A stretch of DNA of 28,425 nt from the IMG/VR virus record IMGVR_UViG_2619619134_000010. The stretch is one strand, 5' to 3'. The DNA is from a virus (taxonomy: Duplodnaviria > Heunggongvirae > Uroviricota > Caudoviricetes). Below, piece by piece: positions 1 to 24,144 of the stretch. The notes beneath the pieces are model-generated. The model was not told the origin of the DNA. It was given only the letters and a program-made list of their open reading frames with translations, and did no database searches. The translations under genes and the position numbers were made by a program. The number at the start of each line of letters is the position of its first letter. Within the stretch, counting starts at the first letter, position 1.

Positions 1-246
1 TCATTACCGGAAGATGAATATTCAGCAGAGCAAGTGGCTGATTGTTACCGTCTGCGATGGCAAATTGAACTGGCTTTTAAGCGGCTCAAAAGTTTGCTGC
101 ACCTGGATGCTTTGCGTGCAAAGGAACCTGAACTCGCGAAAGCGTGGATATTTGCTAATCTACTCGCCGCATTTTTAATTGACGACATAATCCAGCCATC
201 GCTGGATTTCCCCCCCAGAAGTGCCGGATCCGAAAAGAAGAACTAA
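1..246 (+). mobile_element. 3' fragment of an IS-element DDE transposase gene (5' part lies outside the window)
   Basis: Frame open from nt 1 to TAA at 244-246; translation ...ADCYRLRWQIELAFKRLKS... carries the Y-x2-R-x3-E-x6-K (YREK) signature of IS4-superfamily transposases. Exact IS family and the terminal inverted repeat not determined. Confidence 0.6.
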
Positions 247-605
247 CTCGTTGTGGAGAATAACAAAAATGGTCATCTGGAGCTTACAGGTGGCCATTCG
301 TGGGACAGTATCCCTGACAGCCTACAAAGCGCAATTGAAGAACGCGAGGCATCGTCTTAACGAGGCACCGAGGCGTCGCATTCTTCAGATGGTTCAACCC
401 TTAAGTTAGCGCTTATGGGTAAAACTCCCCGGTCTTGAGGCCCGCCGTTCGGCGGATGAATGGTTATGTCGCTACGATTTGCCGAAAGTCTGAACCGCTT
501 CTGGCGACCACTCATGATTGCGCTGTTGTGTGTCGTTGTGGTGCTCCGGGGTGTGCTGTGGCTGCGGTGAATAATCCCTTACCGGCCCTGATTGCCGGAG
601 GGTGT

Positions 606-956
606 ATGGCGGCGCTGGGGGTGATGAGCGTGCTGGCTGCCGTGGTATGGGGAATGCACCAGAAGACACAGCGTCTTGAAGACAATAATCATGTGCTTGT
701 GCGTGAACGGGACGAAGCCCGTCTGGTGCTGGCAAACCAGCAACGTACCCTGCAACTCATTTCACAAATCAGTAAGGCGGCCACGAATGAAAAACAGCAG
801 AACATGCAGCACAGCGAGGAACAGCAGAGCATTGTCCGCCGGTCGCTGGCAACGGTGCCTGCGGCCTCTGTTCCTGTGCCTGATGATGTGGCTGACCGGG
901 TGCGGCGGGCCGTCTGTGAAATACGTGCCGGTGAAGCCGGTGCCGATCCCCGCTGA
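606..956 (+). CDS. i-spanin (Rz-like inner-membrane spanin); start uncertain (ATG 606 with GGAGG 4 nt upstream; alternatives GTG 567, ATG 456)
   Basis: N-terminal hydrophobic helix MAALGVMSVLAAVVWG followed by charged coiled-coil-like region; a lipoprotein ORF overlaps in the +1 frame, the classic spanin arrangement. Confidence 0.6.
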   Translation: MAALGVMSVLAAVVWGMHQKTQRLEDNNHVLVRERDEARLVLANQQRTLQLISQISKAATNEKQQNMQHSEEQQSIVRRSLATVPAASVPVPDDVADRVRRAVCEIRAGEAGADPR

Positions 957-1158
957 ATGGCTGGCTGACTGTCTGGTTCCTCCTGTGCCGCAGCCGTTCA
1001 CGTTTGGCGCATCGGTCACTTACAACCTGCAACTGCTGGCGGTGATTAAGAACTGCAACGTGGACAAGGCCAGCATCCGCCGTCTGGAGGCACAGCGACA
1101 GCATGAATTTACTGATATGGCCGGAACGACTGCTGTTCCGGCAGGAAAGACGAAGTAA
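787..1158 (+). CDS. o-spanin (Rz1-like outer-membrane lipoprotein), overlapping the i-spanin in the +1 frame
   Basis: Lipobox LTGC after hydrophobic stretch LFLCLMMW; mature part proline-rich (VKYVPVKPVPIPAEW...PPVPQP) with conserved Cys; AAGG about 8 nt upstream of ATG 787. Starts inside the i-spanin gene and extends past it. Confidence 0.6.
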   Translation: MKNSRTCSTARNSRALSAGRWQRCLRPLFLCLMMWLTGCGGPSVKYVPVKPVPIPAEWLADCLVPPVPQPFTFGASVTYNLQLLAVIKNCNVDKASIRRLEAQRQHEFTDMAGTTAVPAGKTK

Positions 1159-1168
1159 GGAAAAAGGT

Positions 1169-1396
1169 ATGGATGATTCAGATTGTGCTCAGGCAGTCGT
1201 GGAGCGGGCAACAGAACGCGCCCTTTGTGACCGGCTGACACGTAAGTGCCGGGTGGAGGAGACTCCGGGCAGGCGTGTATGCGCAGACTGCGGGGGTGAC
1301 ATTCCGGCCGCCCGTCTGGTTGCCGTGCCGGATGCCATCCGTTGTGTGAACTGCCAGAGCATCATGGAGGCCGGTCATGTGGGTCAGCATCGTTAA
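1169..1396 (+). CDS. TraR/DksA-family C4 zinc-finger protein
   Basis: MDDSDCAQAVVERATERAL...CADCGGDIPAARLVAVPDAIRCVNCQ: CxxC-x17-CxxC zinc finger with the DksA/TraR-like spacing; AAGGAAAAAGG just upstream of ATG 1169. Listed ORF 1103..1396 begins at an upstream alternative start. Confidence 0.7.
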   Translation: MDDSDCAQAVVERATERALCDRLTRKCRVEETPGRRVCADCGGDIPAARLVAVPDAIRCVNCQSIMEAGHVGQHR

Positions 1397-1688
1397 AGAT
1401 TATGTCGTGCCGATCCTGTCGGCAACAGCCACGGCCGGGGGGATCTTTATGGCGCTGATGCGCAAAACCTTTGTCCCCCGCGAGGCCTTTGAAAAACTCT
1501 CCGACCGGGTTGAGCGGGTGGAGAGCCGGATTTCCGGCCTGCCCACGCAGCAGGAGGTGAACAGACTCAATATCGAAATCACCACCCTGCGCGGTGAGCT
1601 TAAGGCCACCAATGCCACCCTGAAATCCGTCTCCCACCAGAACGAACTGCTGCTGGAGCAGGCTGTAAGGAAAAAACACAATGAGTGA
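1377..1688 (+). CDS. Small membrane-anchored coiled-coil protein (Mu lysis-region gp25-like; possible endolysin-release factor)
   Basis: N-terminal hydrophobic segment VVPILSATATAGGIFMAL followed by a heptad-rich region; position between the spanins and the packaging genes. Function assigned only by position and architecture. Confidence 0.55.
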   Translation: MWVSIVKDYVVPILSATATAGGIFMALMRKTFVPREAFEKLSDRVERVESRISGLPTQQEVNRLNIEITTLRGELKATNATLKSVSHQNELLLEQAVRKKHNE

Positions 1689-1971
1689 TTTCATTACTGA
1701 AGATCAGCGTCTTGTCATTCTGCGGTCGCTGGCGGATTACAACGGCGAACTGGGCGAATCCGTGCTTCAGGACTGCCTGGATGATTACGGCCACCGCGTG
1801 TCCCGCGACACCGTTCACACCCACATTGCCTGGCTTGCTGAGCAGGGACTGGTGCGTAAGCGCACGCTTGTTAACGGTTATTTCATCGCTGAACTGACCG
1901 GCCGGGGTCAGGATGTGGCGGAAGGTCGTGCCACTGTTCCGGGTGTGAAGAAACCACGCGCAAGGGGGTAA
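1681..1971 (+). CDS. Conserved Mu-like phage protein (gp26-like), probable winged-helix fold
   Basis: ORF overlaps the upstream stop; 96 aa; sits immediately before the small-terminase-like gene as in Mu-like late regions. Confidence 0.55.
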   Translation: MSDFITEDQRLVILRSLADYNGELGESVLQDCLDDYGHRVSRDTVHTHIAWLAEQGLVRKRTLVNGYFIAELTGRGQDVAEGRATVPGVKKPRARG

Positions 1972-1973
1972 CG

Positions 1974-2555
1974 ATGGATAAGCCGACGCGTGGCCGTGTA
2001 CGCAAGGTGGATTTGCTCCCCGACAGCATCCGTAAGCCGCTGCTGGAAATGCTGCGTGAAAAACGTCTGACGCAGGTCCAGATCCGCGAGGAAATCAACC
2101 GTCTGATCCGTGAAGCAGGTCTGCCGGAAGAGCAGCAGCTCTCACCGGCGGCCATCAGCCGGGAAGCCTCCCGTAATGAGCTGATTGCCCGTAATCTGCG
2201 TGATTTACGCGAGCAGACAAAAGCCATGATGGCCGAACTGGGGGATAAGCCGACCGGTGAAACCACGGCACTGATTCTGGAGATGTCCCGTGCCCTGATG
2301 TACCGCCGTCTGCGTGCCGCCACCGAATCCCTGAACAGCGACAGCGATGTGGATATGCGCCTTATTAAGGACATCCTCCTGTCGGCACAGCGTGCAGAAA
2401 GTGCCGCCGAGCGCAGCATTAAGCGTGAAAAAGAAATCCGGGCCGCATTTGCTGAAGAGATGGCGAATGCGGTCACCGATGAGTTGCGCGGCGTGGATGG
2501 CATGAGCGAGCAGATCGAATTCCGTATCAGGCAGATGCTGCTGGGTAAGGCGTAG
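1974..2555 (+). CDS. Terminase small-subunit-like protein (Mu gp27 family)
   Basis: 193 aa, Arg/Glu-rich helical protein directly upstream of the large terminase gene; start ATG 3 nt after the previous stop. Confidence 0.65.
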   Translation: MDKPTRGRVRKVDLLPDSIRKPLLEMLREKRLTQVQIREEINRLIREAGLPEEQQLSPAAISREASRNELIARNLRDLREQTKAMMAELGDKPTGETTALILEMSRALMYRRLRAATESLNSDSDVDMRLIKDILLSAQRAESAAERSIKREKEIRAAFAEEMANAVTDELRGVDGMSEQIEFRIRQMLLGKA

Positions 2556-2565
2556 GAGGTGAATC

Positions 2566-2814
2566 ATGGCAACAGATAACCGCTCACTGATGAGCAGTGC
2601 CCATCAGAAAGCATTCAGTCTTGCAACACAGTTACCTCCTGAAACCATAAAGGTATGTCGTGAGTTGACTGAACTCAGCATTGCCGGGGAAATATCCCTG
2701 GAACAACTGCATTCGCTGCTGGCAGAGGCTGCCACTGATGAGTTGAGCGGCGTGGACGTGATGACTGAAGAGCTTGAGTCCCGAATCAAAAGCATTCTGA
2801 CAGGTAAAGCATGA
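2566..2814 (+). CDS. Small protein whose C-terminal 26 aa duplicate the C-terminal tail of the upstream small-terminase-like protein
   Basis: C-terminus TDELSGVDVMTEELESRIKSILTGKA versus TDELRGVDGMSEQIEFRIRQMLLGKA in 1974..2555; GGAGG upstream of ATG 2566; stop overlaps the TerL start (ATGA). Confidence 0.6.
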   Translation: MATDNRSLMSSAHQKAFSLATQLPPETIKVCRELTELSIAGEISLEQLHSLLAEAATDELSGVDVMTEELESRIKSILTGKA

Positions 2815-4478
2815 TGAACAAAGCCAGAGAAACGTCGCCTTCACTGATGCAAATGACGCCTCCCCGCAAAATTGATCTGTCCGGTGAAAAAGCCCTGCTG
2901 GGCGTGGATGTGCCGGACAGCCTTGATTTGCCCGGTGATATGCCGGTGTTTCTGGATTATCAGGCCCGCTGGTTTGCAGATGAAAGTCAGGTCTGCATCG
3001 CGGAGAAATCCCGCCGCACCGGTCTTACCTGGGCGGAAGCCGGGCGTAACGTCATTACTGCTGCAAAACCGAAGCGTCGTGGTGGCCGCAATGTGTTTTA
3101 TGTGGGATCAAAGCAGGAGATGGCGCTGGAATATATTTCTGCCTGCGCGCTGTTCTCCCGTGCCTTTAACCAGCTGGCAGATGCTGATGTGTATGAGCAG
3201 ACATTCTGGGATCGGGATAAAAAAGAAGAAATTTTGACCTACATGATCCGCTTTCCGAACAGTGGATTCAAAATTCAGGCATTGTCTTCCCGTCCGTCAA
3301 ACCTGCGCGGCCTTCAGGGGGATGTGGTGATTGATGAAGCCGCGTTCCACGAGTCACTGGATGAGCTTCTCAAGGCGGCAATGGCGCTCACTATGTGGGG
3401 CGCGCGCGTGCGTATTATCTCCACGCATAACGGCGTCGATAATCTGTTTAATCAGTACATTCAGGAAGCCCGCGAGGGGCGCAAGGATTACAGCGTCCAC
3501 CGCATAACCCTGGATGATGCCATTGCGGACGGGCTGTACCGTCGTATCTGTTACGTCACCGATCAGGAATGGTCACCGGAAAGCGAGCAGAAATGGCGTG
3601 ATGATCTCTACAAAAACGCCCCGACCCGTGAGGATGCCGACGAGGAATACGGCTGTATCCCGAAAAAATCCGGCGGTGCCTATATCCCCCACGCGCTTAT
3701 TGAAATGGCGATGATCCGCGACATCCCGATTCTGACGTTTGAAGCCCCGGACAACTTCATCAGCCGTGCCGCATGGCTGCGTGAATCGGAAGTTTTAACC
3801 TGGTGTGAAGAACATTTAAAACCGCTTTTAGAGAAATTAAATCCCCGTTCCCGCTTCAGCTTCGGGGAAGACTTTGCCCGCACCGGTGACCTGTCCTGCT
3901 TTATGCTGCTGGAAATCACCGAATCCCTGGCAAAGCGCGAGGTGTTTCGCGTGGAGCTGCGCAACCTGCCGTATGCCCAGCAGGAACAGGTGATGATGTA
4001 CATCCTGACCCGCGTTCCGGCGCTGGTCGGTGCGGCGTTCGACGCCACCGGTAACGGCGGCTATCTGGCAGAGGCCGCACTGCTGGCCTTTGGCCCGGAT
4101 ATCATCGACTGCGTGATGTTGTCGCCGAAGTGGTACGGCGAGTGGATGCCAAAACTGAAAGCCGAGTTTGAAGATCAGAATATCCTCGTCGCCCGCCATC
4201 AGACCACGCTTGATGATTTGCGCCATGTGAAGGTAGTGAATGGTATCCCGCAAATCGACAAGGGGCGCACGAAGGACCAGAACGCAACGGCTGCGAACGC
4301 CCGCCGCCATGGTGATTTTGCCGTGGCGCTCTGTATGGCAAACCGGGCGTCATACATGGAGGGCTTCATCCTGGATGAATCAGCCTGTCAGGCGCTACCG
4401 GAGCGGTCGCGGGCAATGGAGGGCGGTTATCGTGATGACGATGAGGCATATCATGAATTTGATCGGGGGGGCTGGTAG
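2811..4478 (+). CDS. Terminase large subunit (Mu gp28-like)
   Basis: 555 aa; Walker-B-like VVIDEAAF motif; position and size match Mu-type TerL; translationally coupled to flanking genes. Confidence 0.85.
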   Translation: MMNKARETSPSLMQMTPPRKIDLSGEKALLGVDVPDSLDLPGDMPVFLDYQARWFADESQVCIAEKSRRTGLTWAEAGRNVITAAKPKRRGGRNVFYVGSKQEMALEYISACALFSRAFNQLADADVYEQTFWDRDKKEEILTYMIRFPNSGFKIQALSSRPSNLRGLQGDVVIDEAAFHESLDELLKAAMALTMWGARVRIISTHNGVDNLFNQYIQEAREGRKDYSVHRITLDDAIADGLYRRICYVTDQEWSPESEQKWRDDLYKNAPTREDADEEYGCIPKKSGGAYIPHALIEMAMIRDIPILTFEAPDNFISRAAWLRESEVLTWCEEHLKPLLEKLNPRSRFSFGEDFARTGDLSCFMLLEITESLAKREVFRVELRNLPYAQQEQVMMYILTRVPALVGAAFDATGNGGYLAEAALLAFGPDIIDCVMLSPKWYGEWMPKLKAEFEDQNILVARHQTTLDDLRHVKVVNGIPQIDKGRTKDQNATAANARRHGDFAVALCMANRASYMEGFILDESACQALPERSRAMEGGYRDDDEAYHEFDRGGW

Positions 4479-6067
4479 TGGGACGCATCATTGATACTGA
4501 CGGAAAACCTTTCTCCTTTGACCCGGAGATGCAGAGTGCCGCGCTGGATATTCCGCAGATTGCCAGCCGTTATATTGAACATCCGGCTTCGGGTATCACC
4601 CCGAACCGGGCGGCGCAGTGCCTTCGCGGGGCTGAACGTGGCGATCTGATTGCCCAGTCCGATCTGGCCGCTGATATTGAAGAAAAGGACACCCACCTTT
4701 TTGCGGAGCTGGGCAAGCGACGTCTTGCCATTCAGGGGGTGCCATGGAGTATTGAGCCGCCACCGAACGCCAGCGCGAATGAGAAAAAGGACGCGGAAAT
4801 GCTCGACGAATATCTGCATTCCGCAGACTGGTTTGATGCCATGCTGTTTGACGCCACGGATGCCATCCTGAAGGGCTATTCCTGCATGGAAATTGAGCAC
4901 GGGATGCTCGGTAAAATGCACATCATCCGCGCCATCCGCTGGCGTGACAGCGGGCATTTCTGCCTTAACCCGGATGATTTGAGCGAACTGCGGCTGCGTG
5001 ACGGCAGCCATGCCGGGGTGGCGTTTCAGCCTTTTGGCTGGATAGTGCATCAGTCACGTTCACGGACCGGTTACGGTGGCGCAACGGGGCTTGTCAGGAC
5101 GCTTATCTGGCCGTTCATTTTCAAAAACTATTCCGTGCGCGATCTGGCCGAATTTCTGGAGGTGTACGGACTGCCGATGAAGGTCGGGAAATACCCGTCC
5201 GGGGCAACACCGGAGCAGAAAAGCGCCCTGATGCGGGCGGTGATGGATATCGGGCGACGTACAGGCGGGATCATCCCGGCCGGGATGTCGCTGGAATTTC
5301 AGGCGGCAGCAAACGGGCAGGCCGATCCATTTGAAACCATGATTTCGTGGGGGGAGCGTTCCATCTCCAAAGCAATACTCGGCGGCACGCTGACCACGGA
5401 AGCCGGAGACAAAGGCGCGCGCTCGCTGGGTGAGGTGCATAACGAGGTGCGCCGGGAAATCAGGGATTCTGATTTACGGCAGCTGGCTGCAACCCTGAAC
5501 CGCGATCTGGTGTATCCGCTGTACGCCCTGAACACCACGCACACTATTGATATCCGCCGTCTGCCACGTATCTGCTTCCAGACCAAAGAACCAGGTGATA
5601 TCACCAAAATCACCAGTGCGGTGATGCAGCTCAGTACGGGGATGGATATTTCTGATCCCTGGATACGGGAGCAGACCGGTATTCCGCAGCCCACGCCCGG
5701 TGAAGCCATATTCCGTGTCCGTCAGAGTGGCAATGAACCGGCTCAGACCGACAGGGAAACACCACCGGAAAAACAGGAAAAAACAGAGCAGACGGCGCTG
5801 TCAGCCAGACTGCCGGAAGCGAAAAGCACGCCGCGTGATGAACTGGATGATATGGGGGACGCGGTGCCTGCCCGCCGCTTACAGGAGGCCATCGACCCGG
5901 TACTGGAGCCGGTCATTGATGCCATCAGAACGCGGGGGCTGGCGGATGCGCTGGCAGACCTGCCTGCCCTTTATCGTGAAATGGATGATTCCCGCCTGAT
6001 GACGCTGCTCAGTGATGCCATGTTTGCTGCGGAAATGAAGGGGATGCTGGATGACACAGGGGATTGA
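4478..6067 (+). CDS. Portal protein (Mu gp29-like)
   Basis: 529 aa ORF immediately after TerL, start overlapping the TerL stop; acidic C-terminal region typical of portals. Confidence 0.8.
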   Translation: MGRIIDTDGKPFSFDPEMQSAALDIPQIASRYIEHPASGITPNRAAQCLRGAERGDLIAQSDLAADIEEKDTHLFAELGKRRLAIQGVPWSIEPPPNASANEKKDAEMLDEYLHSADWFDAMLFDATDAILKGYSCMEIEHGMLGKMHIIRAIRWRDSGHFCLNPDDLSELRLRDGSHAGVAFQPFGWIVHQSRSRTGYGGATGLVRTLIWPFIFKNYSVRDLAEFLEVYGLPMKVGKYPSGATPEQKSALMRAVMDIGRRTGGIIPAGMSLEFQAAANGQADPFETMISWGERSISKAILGGTLTTEAGDKGARSLGEVHNEVRREIRDSDLRQLAATLNRDLVYPLYALNTTHTIDIRRLPRICFQTKEPGDITKITSAVMQLSTGMDISDPWIREQTGIPQPTPGEAIFRVRQSGNEPAQTDRETPPEKQEKTEQTALSARLPEAKSTPRDELDDMGDAVPARRLQEAIDPVLEPVIDAIRTRGLADALADLPALYREMDDSRLMTLLSDAMFAAEMKGMLDDTGD

Positions 6068-7382
6068 TTTAGGTTATGCCGCCACGCTTCCCTCAAAAGA
6101 GGCGGTAGCATACTTCCGTGTCAAAGGGGCGCATATCAGCTGGAACTGGTTCGAAACAGCCGCGGATGTTCATGCCCGCTCATTCACGGCAGCAAAAGCG
6201 GCACGCCTGGATGTGGTGACCACGTTACAGGCCGAAGTGCAGCGGGCCATTGATGAGGGAATTTCACAGAAAGCATTTATCCGCACGCTGACGCCACGCC
6301 TGCAAAAGCTGGGATGGTGGGGAAAGCAGATTGTGGTGGACAGCGACGGTAACGCGGAAGAAGTGCAACTGGGCAGTCCCCGTCGTCTGGCGCTGATTTA
6401 CAACGTGAACACCCGTGTGGCTTACAATGCCGGGCGTTACACGCAGATGATGAACAACACGGACACGCATCCGTTCTGGCAGTATGTGGCGGTCATGGAC
6501 AGCCGTACCCGCCCGTCGCATTCCGCCCTTAACGGTCTGGTATTCCGCTATGACGATCCGTTCTGGAAAACACACTACCCACCTAATGGCTGGAACTGCC
6601 GCTGCCGTGTGCGGCCATTGTCTCAGGCTCGTCTGGATGCAATGGGGTTATCCGTTTCATCCGGTGAGGATCATCTCTCCACCCGCAATGTTGAGGCTGG
6701 CGTGGATAAACAGACCGGAGAAGTCAGAGAAATGCCGGTGACCACATATTCAGATGGCACCAGAACCATGACACCGGATGTGGGCTGGTCATATAACCCC
6801 GGCTCGGCAGCGTTCGGCACAGACCAGGCGCTGATCCGCAAACTGATCGAGGTGAAAAGCCCGGCGTTACGGGAAATGGTGGTTCAGGAGATGAACAACA
6901 GCCCGGAGCGGCAGCTGGCGTTCCGCATCTGGGCAAAAAACATCATGCAGACCCGGCGAGGTGGTAACGATATCCGCACGCTGGGCTTTATGACTGAAAG
7001 CATTGCGCAGGCAGTGGAAAGCCGGACGGGAACGCCACCGGCCCGCCTGCTGGCGATGAGCGGTAAAAATGTGCTCCATGCAGACAGTGTGAAACATCAG
7101 AATGACGGCATCGCCCTGATGCCAGAGGACTTCGGGCGCTTACCGGCAATGCTGGCAAAGCCAAAAGCGGTGCTGTGGGACAAACGGCACAAAAATCTGA
7201 TGTATATCGTGGAAAATAAGGATGGCAGTGTGCAGATTGCCGTTAATGCACCGTACAGTCTGAAACGTCAGCCCGACAAACTGGATGTGATTGTGAATGC
7301 TTACCGGGTTATCAATATGGATAAGCTGAAATCGGATATCCGGGGCGGAATGCTTGAGGTGCTGGAAGGACAAATTGATTAA
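6051..7382 (+). CDS. Head morphogenesis protein (Mu F / gp30-like)
   Basis: 443 aa ORF overlapping the portal 3' end; conserved position after the portal in Mu-like phages. Confidence 0.75.
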   Translation: MTQGIDLGYAATLPSKEAVAYFRVKGAHISWNWFETAADVHARSFTAAKAARLDVVTTLQAEVQRAIDEGISQKAFIRTLTPRLQKLGWWGKQIVVDSDGNAEEVQLGSPRRLALIYNVNTRVAYNAGRYTQMMNNTDTHPFWQYVAVMDSRTRPSHSALNGLVFRYDDPFWKTHYPPNGWNCRCRVRPLSQARLDAMGLSVSSGEDHLSTRNVEAGVDKQTGEVREMPVTTYSDGTRTMTPDVGWSYNPGSAAFGTDQALIRKLIEVKSPALREMVVQEMNNSPERQLAFRIWAKNIMQTRRGGNDIRTLGFMTESIAQAVESRTGTPPARLLAMSGKNVLHADSVKHQNDGIALMPEDFGRLPAMLAKPKAVLWDKRHKNLMYIVENKDGSVQIAVNAPYSLKRQPDKLDVIVNAYRVINMDKLKSDIRGGMLEVLEGQID

Positions 7383-7503
7383 CGGTCAGTGGCGGGGGGC
7401 GAACCCGCATACATGATCCACCCGGAGGCAGGCACCGACTTTACCAGTTAAGCGTACACTGACCGCCTGTTTATTTTATATTCATCCTTTATGCGGAGGC
7501 AAT

Positions 7504-7977
7504 ATGTCATCCATTGATGCCGCTGTCGTTGTTGACGTTACGCGTCTCCAGCGGGTGTTTGCCCGGCTTCAGTTTGTGGGCGGCGGAAAAGACCTGGCCC
7601 GCAGTGTGGCGGAGAGTCTTCTGTCATCGTCAGAAATGGCGTTTGAACAGGAAAAAGAGCCGGACGGCGAACGCTGGCATGACTGGTCAGATCCTTACCG
7701 CAAGTGGCGTACCCGTAAGGGATACACGCCCGGCAAAATCCTGACACTGAACGGCGATCTGGCCCGCCGCCTGACCACGGATTATGGCGATACCTGGGCG
7801 CTGATTGGATCAAATGAACCTTATGCGGCCATTCATCAGTGGGGTGGCCTGCCTGGTATGCCACCGGGACCGGCGGCCATTGGCGCACGTCCGTATATGG
7901 GCTTTGATCAGGTGGCAGAACAGGAGATCATGGACGAAATCAGAAAACGCTTTAAAAAGGCCACAGAAACGCCGTAA
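7504..7977 (+). CDS. Virion morphogenesis protein (Mu G-like)
   Basis: 157 aa; GGAGG 5 nt upstream of ATG; position between F-like and I-like genes. Confidence 0.7.
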   Translation: MSSIDAAVVVDVTRLQRVFARLQFVGGGKDLARSVAESLLSSSEMAFEQEKEPDGERWHDWSDPYRKWRTRKGYTPGKILTLNGDLARRLTTDYGDTWALIGSNEPYAAIHQWGGLPGMPPGPAAIGARPYMGFDQVAEQEIMDEIRKRFKKATETP

Positions 7978-8154
7978 TGGTTTAAGGTATACAAACGCAT
8001 TACCTTACCCTCTTCAGGCGCGTGTCGTGATTTTCTAACCTGTATTTAACGGGCTTTAAAATCTGCGTGAAGCGCCTTTCTCATTTTTCCCCTGTCAGCA
8101 CTTTCTGAAGTCCCGCAAAACCGGCCCCGAAAAACACCGGCTTATGCTGCCGGA
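7978..8154 (+). promoter_or_regulatory. 177-bp intergenic gap upstream of the I-like gene: candidate late promoter region
   Basis: Largest non-coding gap inside the otherwise tightly coupled head operon; in Mu a C-dependent late promoter precedes gene I. No sequence motif confirmed. Confidence 0.3.
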
Positions 8155-9279
8155 ATGAAGACGAAAAACACGCCCAAACTTGCTTATGCCATTCTGAATG
8201 CCATCAGCCTGTCCGCAGACGGGGACGGTGACTGGTGTCAGATCATGCCAGCCGGTCGGGTAAAGGCCCGTGACGGTCGCCCGGAAAAACCGGCGGAAGG
8301 CTGGCTGATTAACCATGCGGCCGTTGAGCGCATGGTATCCCGGGTTGTGGCGCTCAATCAGCCGGTAAAAATTGACTACAACCACCAGACCCTGATTAAG
8401 GGGCATCCGGCACCGGCTGCCGGTTTTGTCATGGCCTCACCGGAAAACTTCCGCTTCAGTGAAGAGCGGGGTTTTGAAGTGCGTCCGGACTGGAACCCTC
8501 CGGCCATTGAACACCTGCGCAATAACGAATTTCCCTGGTTTTCCCCGGTGATTGGTTATGACGAAATCACCGGTGAACCTGTTGAGCTTCGGATGCTGGC
8601 TATTACCGGTGACCCCGGTCTGACTGGCATGAATCCTGTCGCCGCACTGTCGGCGGATGACCTTTATAACGCCTTAAACCCTCCTTTAAAGGACACCTCC
8701 ATGAATGAGCAATTACGCCAGTTGCTGACGGCGCTCGGTCTGACCGTGGCCGACGGTGACGAATTTACACCGGAACTGGGCACGGCGGCGCTGTCTGCCC
8801 TTACCGGGATCAAAACCCGTGCGGATGCGCACGACACCCTGAAAACGCAGGTTGCCAGCCTGTCGGCAGAGCTGGAAACCGCAAAAGGCACACCAACTGG
8901 CGGCACTATTGATCTGACGAAATACGTGCCCGTTGAGACGTATAACGCCCTGCGTACCGAATATGTCGCGTTGTCGGCACAACACGGCAGCACCACGCTG
9001 GAGCAGTTGCTGGATAAGGCCGAGTCCGAAGGACGCATTTTCAAAAGCGAACGCGGATACATGGAAGGACTCGGACAACAGATTGGTGTTGCGGCACTTT
9101 CTGCACAGCTTGACGCCCGCCAGCCGGTTGCGGCTCTGACCACTCTTCAGACCGACACCGTAACCGTGCCGGATAAAAAGACCGCCACCGCTGCGCTGTC
9201 GGCTGAAGATATCGCCGCCGCCCATCTGCTGGGTAAAACCGAAGCCGAGTTCCTGAAAATGAAAGAGGAAATGCAATAA
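8155..9279 (+). CDS. Head maturation protease / scaffold polyprotein (Mu I-like)
   Basis: 374 aa; N-terminal protease-like part and Ala/Leu/Glu-rich C-terminal part; directly upstream of the major head gene with ATGA overlap-type junction. Confidence 0.8.
   Translation: MKTKNTPKLAYAILNAISLSADGDGDWCQIMPAGRVKARDGRPEKPAEGWLINHAAVERMVSRVVALNQPVKIDYNHQTLIKGHPAPAAGFVMASPENFRFSEERGFEVRPDWNPPAIEHLRNNEFPWFSPVIGYDEITGEPVELRMLAITGDPGLTGMNPVAALSADDLYNALNPPLKDTSMNEQLRQLLTALGLTVADGDEFTPELGTAALSALTGIKTRADAHDTLKTQVASLSAELETAKGTPTGGTIDLTKYVPVETYNALRTEYVALSAQHGSTTLEQLLDKAESEGRIFKSERGYMEGLGQQIGVAALSAQLDARQPVAALTTLQTDTVTVPDKKTATAALSAEDIAAAHLLGKTEAEFLKMKEEMQ
8701..9279 (+). CDS. Nested in-frame scaffold protein (Mu Z-like), from an internal start of the I-like gene
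   Basis: Internal ATG at 8701 preceded by AAAGGA at about 9 nt; downstream part is helical and Ala/Glu-rich. Mu expresses scaffold Z from an internal start of I. Confidence 0.5.
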   Translation: MNEQLRQLLTALGLTVADGDEFTPELGTAALSALTGIKTRADAHDTLKTQVASLSAELETAKGTPTGGTIDLTKYVPVETYNALRTEYVALSAQHGSTTLEQLLDKAESEGRIFKSERGYMEGLGQQIGVAALSAQLDARQPVAALTTLQTDTVTVPDKKTATAALSAEDIAAAHLLGKTEAEFLKMKEEMQ

Positions 9280-21011: not shown

Positions 21012-21562
21012 CCCTGACCCCGCATCAGCGCGCCCTGTTGCAGTTACTGCCTGACGGGCTGGCATGGGACAAGCGTCCGTCATCCGTACTGGCATCATTA
21101 TGTCTGGGCCTCAGTCATTCGACAGCGCGTGTATCCTGGACGGGTAAACAGCTGCTTGCCGAGCGTTTCCCTGACACGTCGCGCCTGCTGCTGGAAGACT
21201 GGGAGCGTTATCTCGGGCTTCCCGAGTGTGATATGGCCGGAGCCACCCTCACGGAGCGACAGCGTTATGCCGGAAATAAATACCGGATGAAGCCCTCGCT
21301 GAACCGTGAATTTTATATCCGGTTTGCGGCGGAGTTTGGTTATCAGATTGACATTCAGCCCTCACCGGATTCGCAGTGGGTCAGTATTGTCACGATTAAC
21401 AGTGAAACCGGCTACCGGAATATGAATGTGCTGGATGATATTCTCACGCCGCTGCGTATTTATGAAGGCGGTGCGCTGGAATGTATTCTGAACCGTTATA
21501 AGCCTGCATGGCAGACGTTTATTTACGTTTATGCAAACAGCCATGAAGAGGAGACTATTTAA
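21002..21562 (+). CDS. Tail/baseplate protein (Mu gp48-like)
   Basis: 186 aa; overlaps the upstream gene; immediately precedes the tail fibre gene. Confidence 0.7.
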
Positions 21563-22452
21563 TGTTTCATGTTGATAATAATTCCGGCGTGGCGAATATG
21601 CCTGCGCTGGCACCGGCGCAGAGTAATACCACCACCTGGTTTACCGAAGGTGACGGACAAAAAGGTATCAGCTGGATTGGTCAGGACTGGCTGAATATTC
21701 TCCAGGCCGAACTGCTGAATATTCTGGCTGAAGCCAGTATTCAGCCGGATAAGGCGCAGTTAAACCAGCTTACGCTGTCCATTAAAGCCATTATCGCTGC
21801 GAATGCCTTTTCCCGGAAAAATAACCTGAAAGAAATTGCTGATGCCGGTGCGGAGGCCCAGCGTCTGGCCCGTGGTTATCTTGGTCTGGGGACGCTTGCC
21901 ACAAAAAACAGTCTTGGTCCCGCTGACGTTAATGCCCTGGCGAAGGATCAGAATCTCGCCGACCTGGAGAATAAGGGAACCGCCCGTAATAATCTGGATG
22001 TTTACAGCAAAAGCGAAGGTGATAACCGTTACCTGCGCAGGGAGCAGAACGGCGCAGACATTCCGGATAAAGGGGCTTTTATCGATAACGTCGGTTTACG
22101 GGAAACGGTAAACAGGGCGGCGAATGCCCTGCCATCGGACGGCACCGCCGTTGCCGCGAATAGACTCGCCACCCCAAGAAATATTAATGGGGTTCCCTTT
22201 GACGGGACGCAGGACATAAACATCACTTCTGGTATAACACAGCAGGATGCGGATTCCCGATATATCCAGGATATCAGGCTGGGAGCAGAGAACAGGCAGG
22301 TAATGTACGGTGGGGCATATTACTCTGCGTACGGTAATGTTATGGCAGGCCTGCAGATTGACAGTAAAGTTGATGCTTCAAACGATTTTATAGCATTCAG
22401 ACCCCTGCAAAAATTAGTCGGAGGTACATGGATTACGGTATCTCAGTTATAA
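21562..22452 (+). CDS. Tail fibre protein: constant N-terminal part (to about 22091) fused to the variable tip Sv currently in the expressed orientation
   Basis: 296 aa; the crossover site lies inside the ORF; C-terminus ...[15 protein letters not shown] parallels the alternative tip on the minus strand (...LQYLLNGAWVTAASI). Confidence 0.8.
22079..22104. other. gix-like crossover site (left) for the Gin-family invertase
   Basis: TTATCGATAACGTCGGTTTACGGGAA matches the remembered Mu gix sequence TTATCCAAAACCTCGGTTTACAGGAA at about 22 of 26 positions; lies inside the tail-fibre ORF. Confidence 0.7.
22092..22214. repeat. Left copy of ~123-bp inverted repeat at the inner side of the left crossover site
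   Basis: Reverse complement reappears at 23286..23408; the mirror-frame ORFs 22029..22226(-) and 23181..23474(+) share the identical peptide ...[26 protein letters not shown]. One ~10-bp diverged patch (about 22170-22181). Confidence 0.85.
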
Positions 22453-22503
22453 ATAGTCAGTAAATAATATATTTTAAAACAGATTTATTTCCAGGAGGAT
22501 TTT

Positions 22504-23025
22504 ATGGAACTAAAAAATATAACCCGTTATTATCCTGAAAATATGCCATATGGTAATAATGTTCAGTATTTCCAGAGTGAAGATGGTAAGGATTTCTACG
22601 AATCCCTGCCATTATTCACCAAAAAATATAAACTTTGCATAACACCTGACAGCGGCGTTATCTGCTCAATATCACAGGACGCCTCGGCGCTGTATCCTGC
22701 GGGGTTTTCTGTGGTTGAGGTCGATGAACTCCCTGAAGGCACGGATATTTCAGGAAACTGGAAGTTTGATAATGGCATAATCTCCCGTATTCCGGTTAAC
22801 TACGCAAGAAAACTGGAAGCAATGCGCCAGTCATATCTTAATCAGGCATATGAAAAAATTAATGACTGGAGAACGGAGCTACAACTGGGCACCATCAGCG
22901 ATGAAGACAGAGCAGCACTTACCCAATGGATGGCATACATCAGTCAGGTGAAGAAAATGGAACTCCCCGCCATTAAAACAGAAGCTGAATTTAACGCCAT
23001 TAAATGGCCTGAGCAGCCACAGTAA
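22504..23025 (+). CDS. Tail fibre assembly protein (chaperone, Mu U / lambda Tfa family)
   Basis: 173 aa; C-terminus ...LTQWMAYISQVKKMELPAIKTEAEFNAIKWPEQPQ resembles the Tfa-family C-terminal signature; AGGAGG upstream; AT-rich relative to flanks. Confidence 0.8.
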   Translation: MELKNITRYYPENMPYGNNVQYFQSEDGKDFYESLPLFTKKYKLCITPDSGVICSISQDASALYPAGFSVVEVDELPEGTDISGNWKFDNGIISRIPVNYARKLEAMRQSYLNQAYEKINDWRTELQLGTISDEDRAALTQWMAYISQVKKMELPAIKTEAEFNAIKWPEQPQ

Positions 23026-23028
23026 TAA

Positions 23029-23048
23029 AGAAGGCCGGAAGGCCTTCT
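23029..23048. terminator. Hairpin between convergent U and S'v reading frames (candidate bidirectional terminator)
   Basis: agaaggcc-ggaa-ggccttct: 8-bp stem with tetraloop, AT-rich flanks on both sides. Confidence 0.5.
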
Positions 23049-23056
23049 GAATATCA

Positions 23057-23408
23057 TTATATACTTGCAGCCGTCACCCATGCTCCATTTAACAGATACT
23101 GCAACGGCCGGTAATACACGCCGCCGACGTTATCTGCCGTATTCTTACCGACATCCTGTACTTTAATTCCGGTAAGAACATTGCCGCCCCCCAGATTCAG
23201 ATCCCAGCTTTCCCATGTTCCGGGCATATGTGCGGTCACCGACCCCAGTCTTATGGCGGTTACTGTTCCTGATGAGATAGTGATATCCTGCGTCCCGTCA
23301 AAGGGAACACCATTAATTGTGTGGGCATTTGCCAGCCTGTTCGCGGCAACGGCGGTGCCGTCCGATGGCAGGGCATTCGCCGCCCTGTTTACCGTTTCCC
23401 GTAAACCG
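23057..23408 (-). CDS. Alternative tail-fibre variable tip S'v: promoterless, start-less cassette in the silent orientation
   Basis: Minus-strand frame open from the right crossover site to the stop at 23057; translation ...[46 protein letters not shown]...YYRPLQYLLNGAWVTAASI is in frame with the constant tail-fibre part after inversion. Listed ORF 23057..23239 is its 3' portion. Confidence 0.75.
23286..23408. repeat. Right copy of ~123-bp inverted repeat
   Basis: Reverse complement of 22092..22214 (see left copy). Confidence 0.85.
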
Positions 23409-23421
23409 AGGTTTTCAGGAA
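23396..23421. other. gix-like crossover site (right)
   Basis: TTCCCGTAAACCGAGGTTTTCAGGAA, near-palindromic, about 22 of 26 matches to the Mu gix sequence; sits about 65 bp upstream of the invertase start. Confidence 0.7.
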
Positions 23422-23486
23422 AGCCAGGATTAACTCTGTTTTATTCCTCATGCGACAATTCCGGCTTTTTATAATAAGGAAATCGT

Positions 23487-24059
23487 ATGCTGATTGGGTA
23501 TATCAGGGTGTCAACAAATGACCAGAATACGGCGCTACAAAGAAATGCGCTGGAATGTGCAGGATGTGAGCTGTTTTTCGAAGACAGAATAAGCGGTAAG
23601 ACAAGGGAGCGTCCCGGACTTAAACGCGCATTAAAGCGACTCCGGCCAGGGGATACCCTGCTGGTCTGGAAACTGGATCGCCTTGGACGCAGTATGCAGC
23701 ACCTTGTCCTTTTAACAGAAGAACTCCGGCAACGCGGCGTTAACTTCCGCAGCATTACGGACAATATTGATACATCCACTCCCATGGGACGTTTCTTTTT
23801 CCATATAATGGGCGCGCTGGCGGAAATGGAGCGGGAACTCATTATTGAACGTACACGCGCGGGTCTTGCTGCTGCCCGTGCTCAGGGGCGTCATGGCGGC
23901 AGACCTCAGAAACTGACAGAGAAAGAGCGGGAGCAAATCGCCCGTTTGCTGGCTAATGGCGAGTCCCGTAAACAAATCGCACTGATATTTGATATTGGCC
24001 TTTCCACCCTTTATCGTTATTTTCCTGCCTCACCAGCTCCGTCACCAAAAGTACCGTGA
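23487..24059 (+). CDS. gin: Serine recombinase DNA invertase (Gin/Pin/Cin/Hin family)
   Basis: MLIGYIRVSTNDQNTALQRNAL...LVWKLDRLGRSMQHL...MGRFFFHIMGALAEMERELIIERT...: catalytic Ser in the YxRVST motif and C-terminal HTH; near-identical over long stretches to remembered Mu Gin. Confidence 0.95.
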   Translation: MLIGYIRVSTNDQNTALQRNALECAGCELFFEDRISGKTRERPGLKRALKRLRPGDTLLVWKLDRLGRSMQHLVLLTEELRQRGVNFRSITDNIDTSTPMGRFFFHIMGALAEMERELIIERTRAGLAAARAQGRHGGRPQKLTEKEREQIARLLANGESRKQIALIFDIGLSTLYRYFPASPAPSPKVP

Positions 24060-24144
24060 CGCTTTTTTGAATTTCCGCAAAACACATATTTTTCAGCGGT
24101 CGCTATTCTGACTCTGTTTAATTCAGAAACAGGCAGAAAAGACG

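Follow-up and report, generated by a model that had tools for sequence, protein, structure and literature searches.

We interpret the 28,425-nt stretch of DNA analysed here (IMG/VR virus record IMGVR_UViG_2619619134_000010, hereafter the window) as a Mu-like E. coli prophage whose endolysin gene has been hit in its 3' part by a simple insertion of IS186, at a consensus target of the element, and give this reading a probability of about 85%. IS186 entered a GGGG(N7)CCCC target in the same orientation as the late operon, thereby duplicating 11-13 bp (GGGTAAAACTCCC). The left terminal repeat of the element supplied an in-frame TAA after endolysin codon 146, and the last 24 endolysin codons were cut off on the other side of it, where they now occupy window positions 419-493. 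Neither the element nor the type of phage nor its lysis cassette is of a new kind, and the case is an ordinary IS knock-out of a prophage gene. The insertion looks recent and sporadic, and the rest of the prophage looks intact. A literature search revealed no paper connecting IS186 with prophage endolysins.

The IS186 end and the right junction

The first 605 positions of the window hold the following features.

1-246, + strand: 3' end of the IS186/IS421 transposase gene, comprising the last 81 codons and the stop codon at 244-246 (PF01609, nucleotide identity)
247-394, + strand: 3' non-coding stretch of IS186, from the transposase stop to the terminal repeat (identity to the copy in E. coli C9)
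395-417, + strand: right terminal inverted repeat of IS186, 23 bp, CAACCCTTAAGTTAGCGCTTATG (matches inverted repeat I1 of the complete copy L002)
417-429, + strand: GGGTAAAACTCCC, right copy of the target-site duplication, up to 13 bp (also present in front of the left end of IS186, at L014:10425-10437)
419-493, + strand: 3' remnant of the gene for the putative SAR endolysin (lysozyme), encoding residues 143-166, VKLPGLEARRSADEWLCRYDLPKV, and ending in its stop codon (identity to WP_032188641.1)
494-605, + strand: native endolysin-spanin spacer, 112 bp (identical in uninterrupted prophages)

The initial annotation had described a transposase fragment ending at position 246, and this is borne out by a Pfam match to PF01609 (DDE_Tnp_1, E=8e-14) in the C-terminal 81 residues encoded by window 1-246. 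Window 1-417 is 100% identical at the nucleotide level to E. coli copies annotated as 'IS4-like element IS421 family transposase', and the element corresponds to IS186 (IS186A/B/C of E. coli K-12; isoform IS421; IS4 family), to which all 417 visible bp, those of the 23-bp repeat among them, are 100% identical. Compared with known IS186, there is no difference in kind; the location alone is new, the junction being present in no complete E. coli RefSeq genome. Copies of IS186 occur in 2,187 of 5,426 complete E. coli genomes, with a median of 3 copies per carrier genome.

The arithmetic of the initial annotation had let the IS end at the transposase stop, which is too early: the element runs on for another 171 bp (247-417) up to the end of its right repeat. 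This follows from comparison with the complete IS186 copy of E. coli C9 (L002), which lies between hokE and entD, the position of IS186A in K-12. That copy has inverted repeats at both ends, with a 10-12 bp direct repeat outside them, and its positions L002:1747-1894 are collinear with and 100% identical to window 247-394. The terminal inverted repeats of IS186 measure 23 bp (CATAAGCGCTAACTTAAGGGTTG); the right one lies in the window and the left one in L014, a metagenome scaffold from ENA that is described below. Sequence comparison, the route that had been proposed for placing the IS end, thus located both the inverted repeat (395-417) and a copy of the duplication (417-429), which had been missed by eye. 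G417 is ambiguous and may belong either to the IS end or to the target duplication. Since each record holds a part of the element (its last 417 nt in the window, its first ~50 nt in L014), the complete 1.34-kb element is an assumption.

Homology to uninterrupted prophages starts at window position 417, where the sequence reads GCGCTTAT up to the junction and GGGTAAAACTCCCCGG from it. Positions 419-493 (24 codons and a stop, 75 bp) are 100% identical to the end of the 'lysozyme' CDS WP_032188641.1 of the AF39 prophage (L001:5577-6077), a CDS of 166 aa that ends at the equivalent of window position 493. The 3' endolysin fragment whose presence in 247-605 had been considered was thereby found, and it is correct that no complete endolysin gene separates the IS from the spanins: residues 143-166 alone are present in the window. 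Three pieces account for the ~360 bp that separate the transposase and spanin genes: the IS186 tail (171 bp), the endolysin end (75 bp) and the spacer (112 bp). Identical prophages are annotated with the same spanin start, at the equivalent of 606. Most of the space between the endolysin and spanin genes is taken up by an unannotated 36-aa ORF at 460-570 (MVMSLRFAESLNRFWRPLMIALLCVVVVLRGVLWLR), which also overlaps the 3' end of the endolysin gene, contains a hydrophobic stretch and has no Pfam or PHROG match.

A 43-mer across the right junction has no exact match in viral, genome or metagenome contig collections, and no complete E. coli genome spans the junction. When the 81-aa transposase fragment was looked up, the matches were other loci starting at the same IS186 position, with no phage contig among them. 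Many public draft contigs (L018-L025, at their position 1) begin at the IS186 position at which the window starts, or within 1-2 bases of it, and give the same 81-aa transposase fragment. As many contigs break at this one IS186 position, the window start is probably an assembly break in a repeat rather than a biological end.

Target site, left junction and prophage lineage

The insertion is located at nt ~424-437 of the 501 nt of the endolysin gene. The uninterrupted sequence around the target in the intact prophage is TTCAAAGGGGGTAAAACTCCCCGGTC, and the target itself, GGGGG-TAAAACT-CCCC, is a perfect fit to GGGG(N7)CCCC. A preference of IS186 for GGGG(N6/N7)CCCC is given in PMC6925257, which cites Chong 1985 and saiSree 2001. 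The uninterrupted site (GGGGTAAAACTCCCC, L001:6000-6014) is the sole GGGG(N6/7)CCCC match in the 14.6 kb scanned of the intact AF39 prophage, whereas the 28.4-kb window has zero matches because the insertion splits the site. With the sole consensus target in the scanned DNA lying in the endolysin gene, target preference alone explains the location of the IS.

The target duplication, which counts 11 bp (GGTAAAACTCC) instead of 13 bp if the IS ends are taken as C...G, covers endolysin codons 142-146. It was deduced from two records, the window providing the right junction and L014 the left one. Its length of 11-13 bp resembles the 10-12 bp duplications of IS186 at the hokE-entD copy and in L009, a related prophage locus with an IS186 insertion of its own. 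The arrangement that the initial annotation had set against its own reading, namely an intact endolysin gene upstream of an IS in non-coding DNA, was not seen, as the duplication falls within endolysin codons.

An insertion of IS186 at a hot spot located within the lon promoter of E. coli B was reportedly described by saiSree et al. in 2001. In that case, too, a gene was reportedly inactivated since a consensus target of G-run, AT-core and C-run falls in it; the target there is a host promoter, whereas here it is the coding sequence of a prophage endolysin. The endolysin gene that holds this consensus IS186 hot spot belongs to a Mu-like prophage family widespread in E. coli, so that the same knock-out is expected to recur.

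The left junction was predicted before it was looked up, by analogy with the hokE-entD copy. In this prediction, the endolysin gene runs to ...GTA AAA CTC CC and is joined to the IS left end C ATA AGC..., which gives CTC CCA TAA and a 146-aa product ending in GVKLP. A 146-aa product ending in ...GVKLP (P0016; Logan, ENA) was found in a collection of 15 billion proteins and was the sole match among five junction registers, the four others (with tails ...PISANLRVVVLRLI, ...LHKR, ...LPHKR and ...LISANLRVVVLRLI) being absent from the collection. P0016 is carried by six contigs, of which one, L014, was examined. Its junction reads ...TTCAAAGGGGGTAAAACTCCC up to the IS and ATAAGCGCTAACTTAAGGGTTG from there on or, at another extent, ...GGGGGTAAAACTCCC followed by ATAAGCGCTAACTTAAGGGTTGTGG..., and the contig ends ~50 nt into IS186. 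The orientation of the IS is equal on both sides, that is, at the left junction in L014 and at the right junction in the window.

Upstream of the truncated endolysin gene, L014 has a complete Mu-like early region with a repressor, a Ner-like protein, MuA, MuB, Kil, Gam, GemA and Mor, the last six of which are also present in AF39. That the IS interrupts the endolysin, as the initial annotation had proposed, is borne out by both records, residues 143-166 lying to the right of the element and the L014 counterpart stopping after residue 146. Its further suggestion that the early region or the 5' part of the endolysin gene had been deleted is not supported, as this complete early region stands in front of the left junction. 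L014 is 99.9% identical to the prophage of E. coli DLI.5a over 5.8 kb, and the DLI.5a prophage is 100% identical to the window at 417-1738 and 99.9% identical at 21156-28425. Since L014 and the window both match the DLI.5a prophage, the two halves represent one prophage lineage. Together, the left junction and the matching duplication are strong sequence evidence of a simple insertion, short of proof as this junction comes from other records than the window's own genome.

The DLI.5a prophage itself (L011, L013; NZ_CP103972.1) is a deletion derivative in which the DUF2730 region is joined to the tail-fibre region (window 1738 / 21156). It is devoid of ~19.4 kb of head and tail genes, and its Gin-like recombinase is frameshifted.

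Everything in the window from position 417 on belongs to a Mu-like transposable E. coli prophage. Gp27, Com and Mom are encoded in the window, and Portal_Mu and Mu_F are identical in related loci; past the DUF2730 gene, the gene order runs from gp27 through the large terminase and the Mu-type portal to com and mom at the window end. The prophage of isolate AF39, which is inserted in dcyD, is 100% identical to the window over 417-3000 and 99.9% identical over 417-9000, and window 417-6956 has a 100% identical counterpart in the 6.5 kb downstream of the insertion in L009. All late ORFs, the spanin genes through mom, are equal in length to those of the intact AF39 prophage. The prophage is not Mu: the Mu-type phages D108 and SfMu show ~71% nucleotide similarity to it, in short portal/MuF stretches only. 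Mu-like E. coli prophages such as that of AF39 and the 'inserted Mu-like phage' within the Stx phages LC727895 and LC727881 are collinear with it and 94-100% identical from the endolysin gene to mom, but these copies keep an intact 166-aa endolysin, which the prophage described here has lost.

Some further observations concern the late region. The tail-fibre and tail-fibre-assembly genes adjoin a gene for a Gin-like recombinase (190 aa) at window 21562-24059. AF39 and similar relatives match this segment in two pieces and have a partial tail-protein gene on the opposite strand, which is consistent with a Mu G-segment-type invertible host-range region in differing orientations. Between the recombinase gene and com/mom, window 24145-26199 encodes a 684-aa protein with SASA (sialate O-acetylesterase-like) and DUF6645 domains, likely a cargo or accessory gene of the prophage family. 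PGAP annotates a 'tRNA-OTHER' in AF39 (L015:23017-23096, corresponding to window ~7384-7463) between the MuF-like and virion-morphogenesis genes; tRNA (ARAGORN) and Rfam scans of the window returned nothing.

Lysis cassette and predicted effect of the truncation

Downstream of the spacer, the following genes were identified.

606-956, + strand: Rz-like i-spanin, 116 aa, with an N-terminal transmembrane segment (phrog_214, E=1e-29; PF10828, DUF2570; AF39 CDS)
787-1158, + strand: Rz1-like o-spanin (LysC), in a different frame from the i-spanin gene, which it overlaps and in which it is embedded (PF23793, E=1e-16; phrog_3001, E=1.5e-39)
1169-1396, + strand: TraR/DksA-type zinc-finger protein (PF01258, E=2e-11; phrog_54; AF39 annotation)
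1377-1688, + strand: DUF2730 protein with an N-terminal transmembrane segment, candidate releasin and counterpart of Mu gp25 (PF10805, E=1e-22)

The two spanins form a two-component Rz/Rz1 pair, consisting of an inner-membrane subunit with a transmembrane segment and an overlapping lipobox lipoprotein. The o-spanin's lipobox, LTGC, was read in the ORF at 676-1158, with its Cys codon at 901-903. In identical prophages, PGAP places the o-spanin start at the equivalent of window position 940; this start is past the lipobox and so deprives the annotated protein of its lipoprotein signal. Translation probably begins inside the i-spanin gene, at ATG 787 or at a TTG near 826.

In phage Mu, gp22 is the SAR endolysin, gp23 and gp23.1 are the spanins and gp25 (DUF2730) is the releasin (PMC9239132). 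The cassette described here is like that of Mu in that an endolysin gene is followed first by overlapping Rz/Rz1 spanin genes and next, within five genes, by a gene for a DUF2730 membrane protein, with no holin gene evident; it differs from that of Mu in its extra TraR/DksA gene and in the truncation of its endolysin. Mu-type releasins are recognized by a whole-length DUF2730, an N-terminal transmembrane domain and a gene position within five genes downstream of the endolysin (PMC9239132). The DUF2730 protein of the window would qualify by these features, as PF10805 covers residues 6-97 of its 103 and its gene is the fourth after the endolysin.

The intact endolysin homologue (166 aa) matches PF00959 (Phage_lysozyme, GH24) with E=7e-36. 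Its best sequence match among solved structures is the SAR endolysin of phage P21 (3HDE, E=4e-26); the homology spans the whole protein, N-terminal segment included, with an alignment from residue 5. The endolysin has a basic N-terminus (KLPAPLRKK), then a Gly/Ala-rich hydrophobic stretch that may be a SAR segment (LIALVLAGAGTFTIA), both read from the sequence, and an E-D-T triad; the latter was read in the intact homologue as E-x8-D-x5-T, with E34, D43 and T49 as catalytic residues.

Translation of codons 1-146 yields an endolysin without its last 20 residues (147-166, GLEARRSADEWLCRYDLPKV). The lost segment is nearly invariant across homologues of 64-96% identity and corresponds, in the alignment, to the C-terminal part of the P21 endolysin structure, and its removal takes away positions 113-125 of the PF00959 model, the end of the Pfam domain. 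The 146-aa form keeps the triad and 88% of the protein and still matches PF00959 with E=8e-31. As 20 conserved C-terminal residues of the GH24 domain are lost, the truncated enzyme has probably become inactive or unstable. The annotation of the whole late region of the intact AF39 prophage contains no other lysozyme gene. Being the only peptidoglycan-degrading enzyme of a Mu-type cassette, the truncated endolysin would leave the prophage unable to lyse its host on induction, and we consider the prophage to be probably lysis-defective. In Mu, the 22::cam endolysin mutant shows no lysis even 3 h after induction (PMC9239132).

The 1.34-kb insert would also come between the late promoter, presumed to lie in the mor-endolysin gap, and the genes for the spanins, releasin, terminase and portal. 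A crude scan of window 1-1200, including the IS end and the endolysin-spanin spacer, found no outward sigma-70-like promoter. It is a matter of speculation that polarity of the IS lowers the expression of these downstream genes; as the IS points in the same direction as the operon, read-through is possible.

The window offers a natural endolysin-truncation allele in a holin-less, releasin-type cassette, which could serve as a ready-made mutant for lysis studies. For annotation purposes, the locus would best be flagged as an endolysin pseudogene (lys::IS186) in a probably lysis-defective prophage, and neither as an endolysin-less phage nor as a loss of the early region.

Alternative explanations and other endolysin lesions

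The window begins inside the IS, with its left flank outside view, IS186 is multicopy (median 3 per carrier genome), and PMC6925257 reports that it mediates recombination and rearrangements. These points could suit an IS186-mediated rearrangement (a deletion, an inversion or recombination between copies) by which the IS came to connect the late region with unrelated DNA, while the 5' part of the endolysin gene and the early region were lost or moved. We consider this very unlikely, since the predicted reciprocal junction was found, in six contigs, with the matching duplication, the same orientation and a complete early region upstream, and since L014 and the window are each at least 99.9% identical to the DLI.5a prophage. 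The chance that an IS186 end and phage sequence were misjoined at the repeat during assembly is next to negligible. Many draft contigs do start at the same IS186 position as the window, but the join lies exactly at the IS terminal repeat and a consensus target, and independent assemblies hold the reciprocal junction with its matching duplication, which a chimera would not yield.

The phenotype of the insertion might be mild, with a 146-aa endolysin that is active enough, read-through from the IS expressing the downstream genes and the prophage remaining lysis-competent. The retained triad, the 88% of the protein that is kept and the remaining PF00959 match fit this view, as do the spanin and releasin genes, which are intact and have their own start sites. 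It is nevertheless unlikely given the near invariance of GLEARRSADEWLCRYDLPKV among the homologues, the alignment of this segment to the P21 structure, the missing Pfam positions and the absence of an outward promoter-like site in the crude scan of 1-1200. Alternatively, the loss of the endolysin could be favoured in lysogens, IS186 being merely the commonest route to such a domestication. Lesions in other prophage copies agree with selection of this kind, namely an independent IS186 insertion at a non-consensus site in the same 501-bp gene (L009) and a lysozyme::LysC deletion-fusion allele (P0005). This is quite unlikely all the same, because the endolysin gene is intact (at least 80% coverage) in 232 of the 232 complete E. 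coli records carrying it, because the insertion in the window is at the sole consensus hot spot of the scanned DNA and needs no selection, and because no further late-gene decay is seen. Domestication had also been raised in the initial annotation, and it does not agree with late ORF lengths equal to those of AF39, flanks 99.9-100% identical to intact prophages and the intact endolysin in all of these records.

That IS186 knock-outs of the endolysin are both recurrent and selected in this Mu-like prophage family is most improbable, although a small sample already contained two independent IS186 insertions and one deletion-fusion allele. If it were true, E. coli lineages would repeatedly disarm an inducible, lethal prophage, which would stay on as a non-lytic resident with its particle genes, Mom and cargo genes retained, and the consensus IS186 target in the endolysin gene would be a built-in and possibly reversible off-switch.

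The other lesions are distinct from that of the window. A look-up of contigs encoding the i-spanin did not return the window allele, but brought up the insertion in L009 (L009:4181-5519; GCA_052766285.1, CM127658.1). This second, independent IS186 insertion is located at nt ~142-152 of the endolysin gene, in the opposite orientation, with a duplication ACCGGCACCC(C) at a GC-rich site off the GGGG(N6/7)CCCC consensus. The possibility that the window and L009 hold one and the same allele was rejected, as position, orientation and duplication all differ. P0005, encoded on a Logan contig, is a lysozyme::LysC fusion of 196 aa that joins endolysin residues 1-126 to the C-terminal part of the o-spanin, and implies that another copy of the prophage has a deletion allele in which most of the i-spanin gene is missing along with the 3' end of the endolysin gene.
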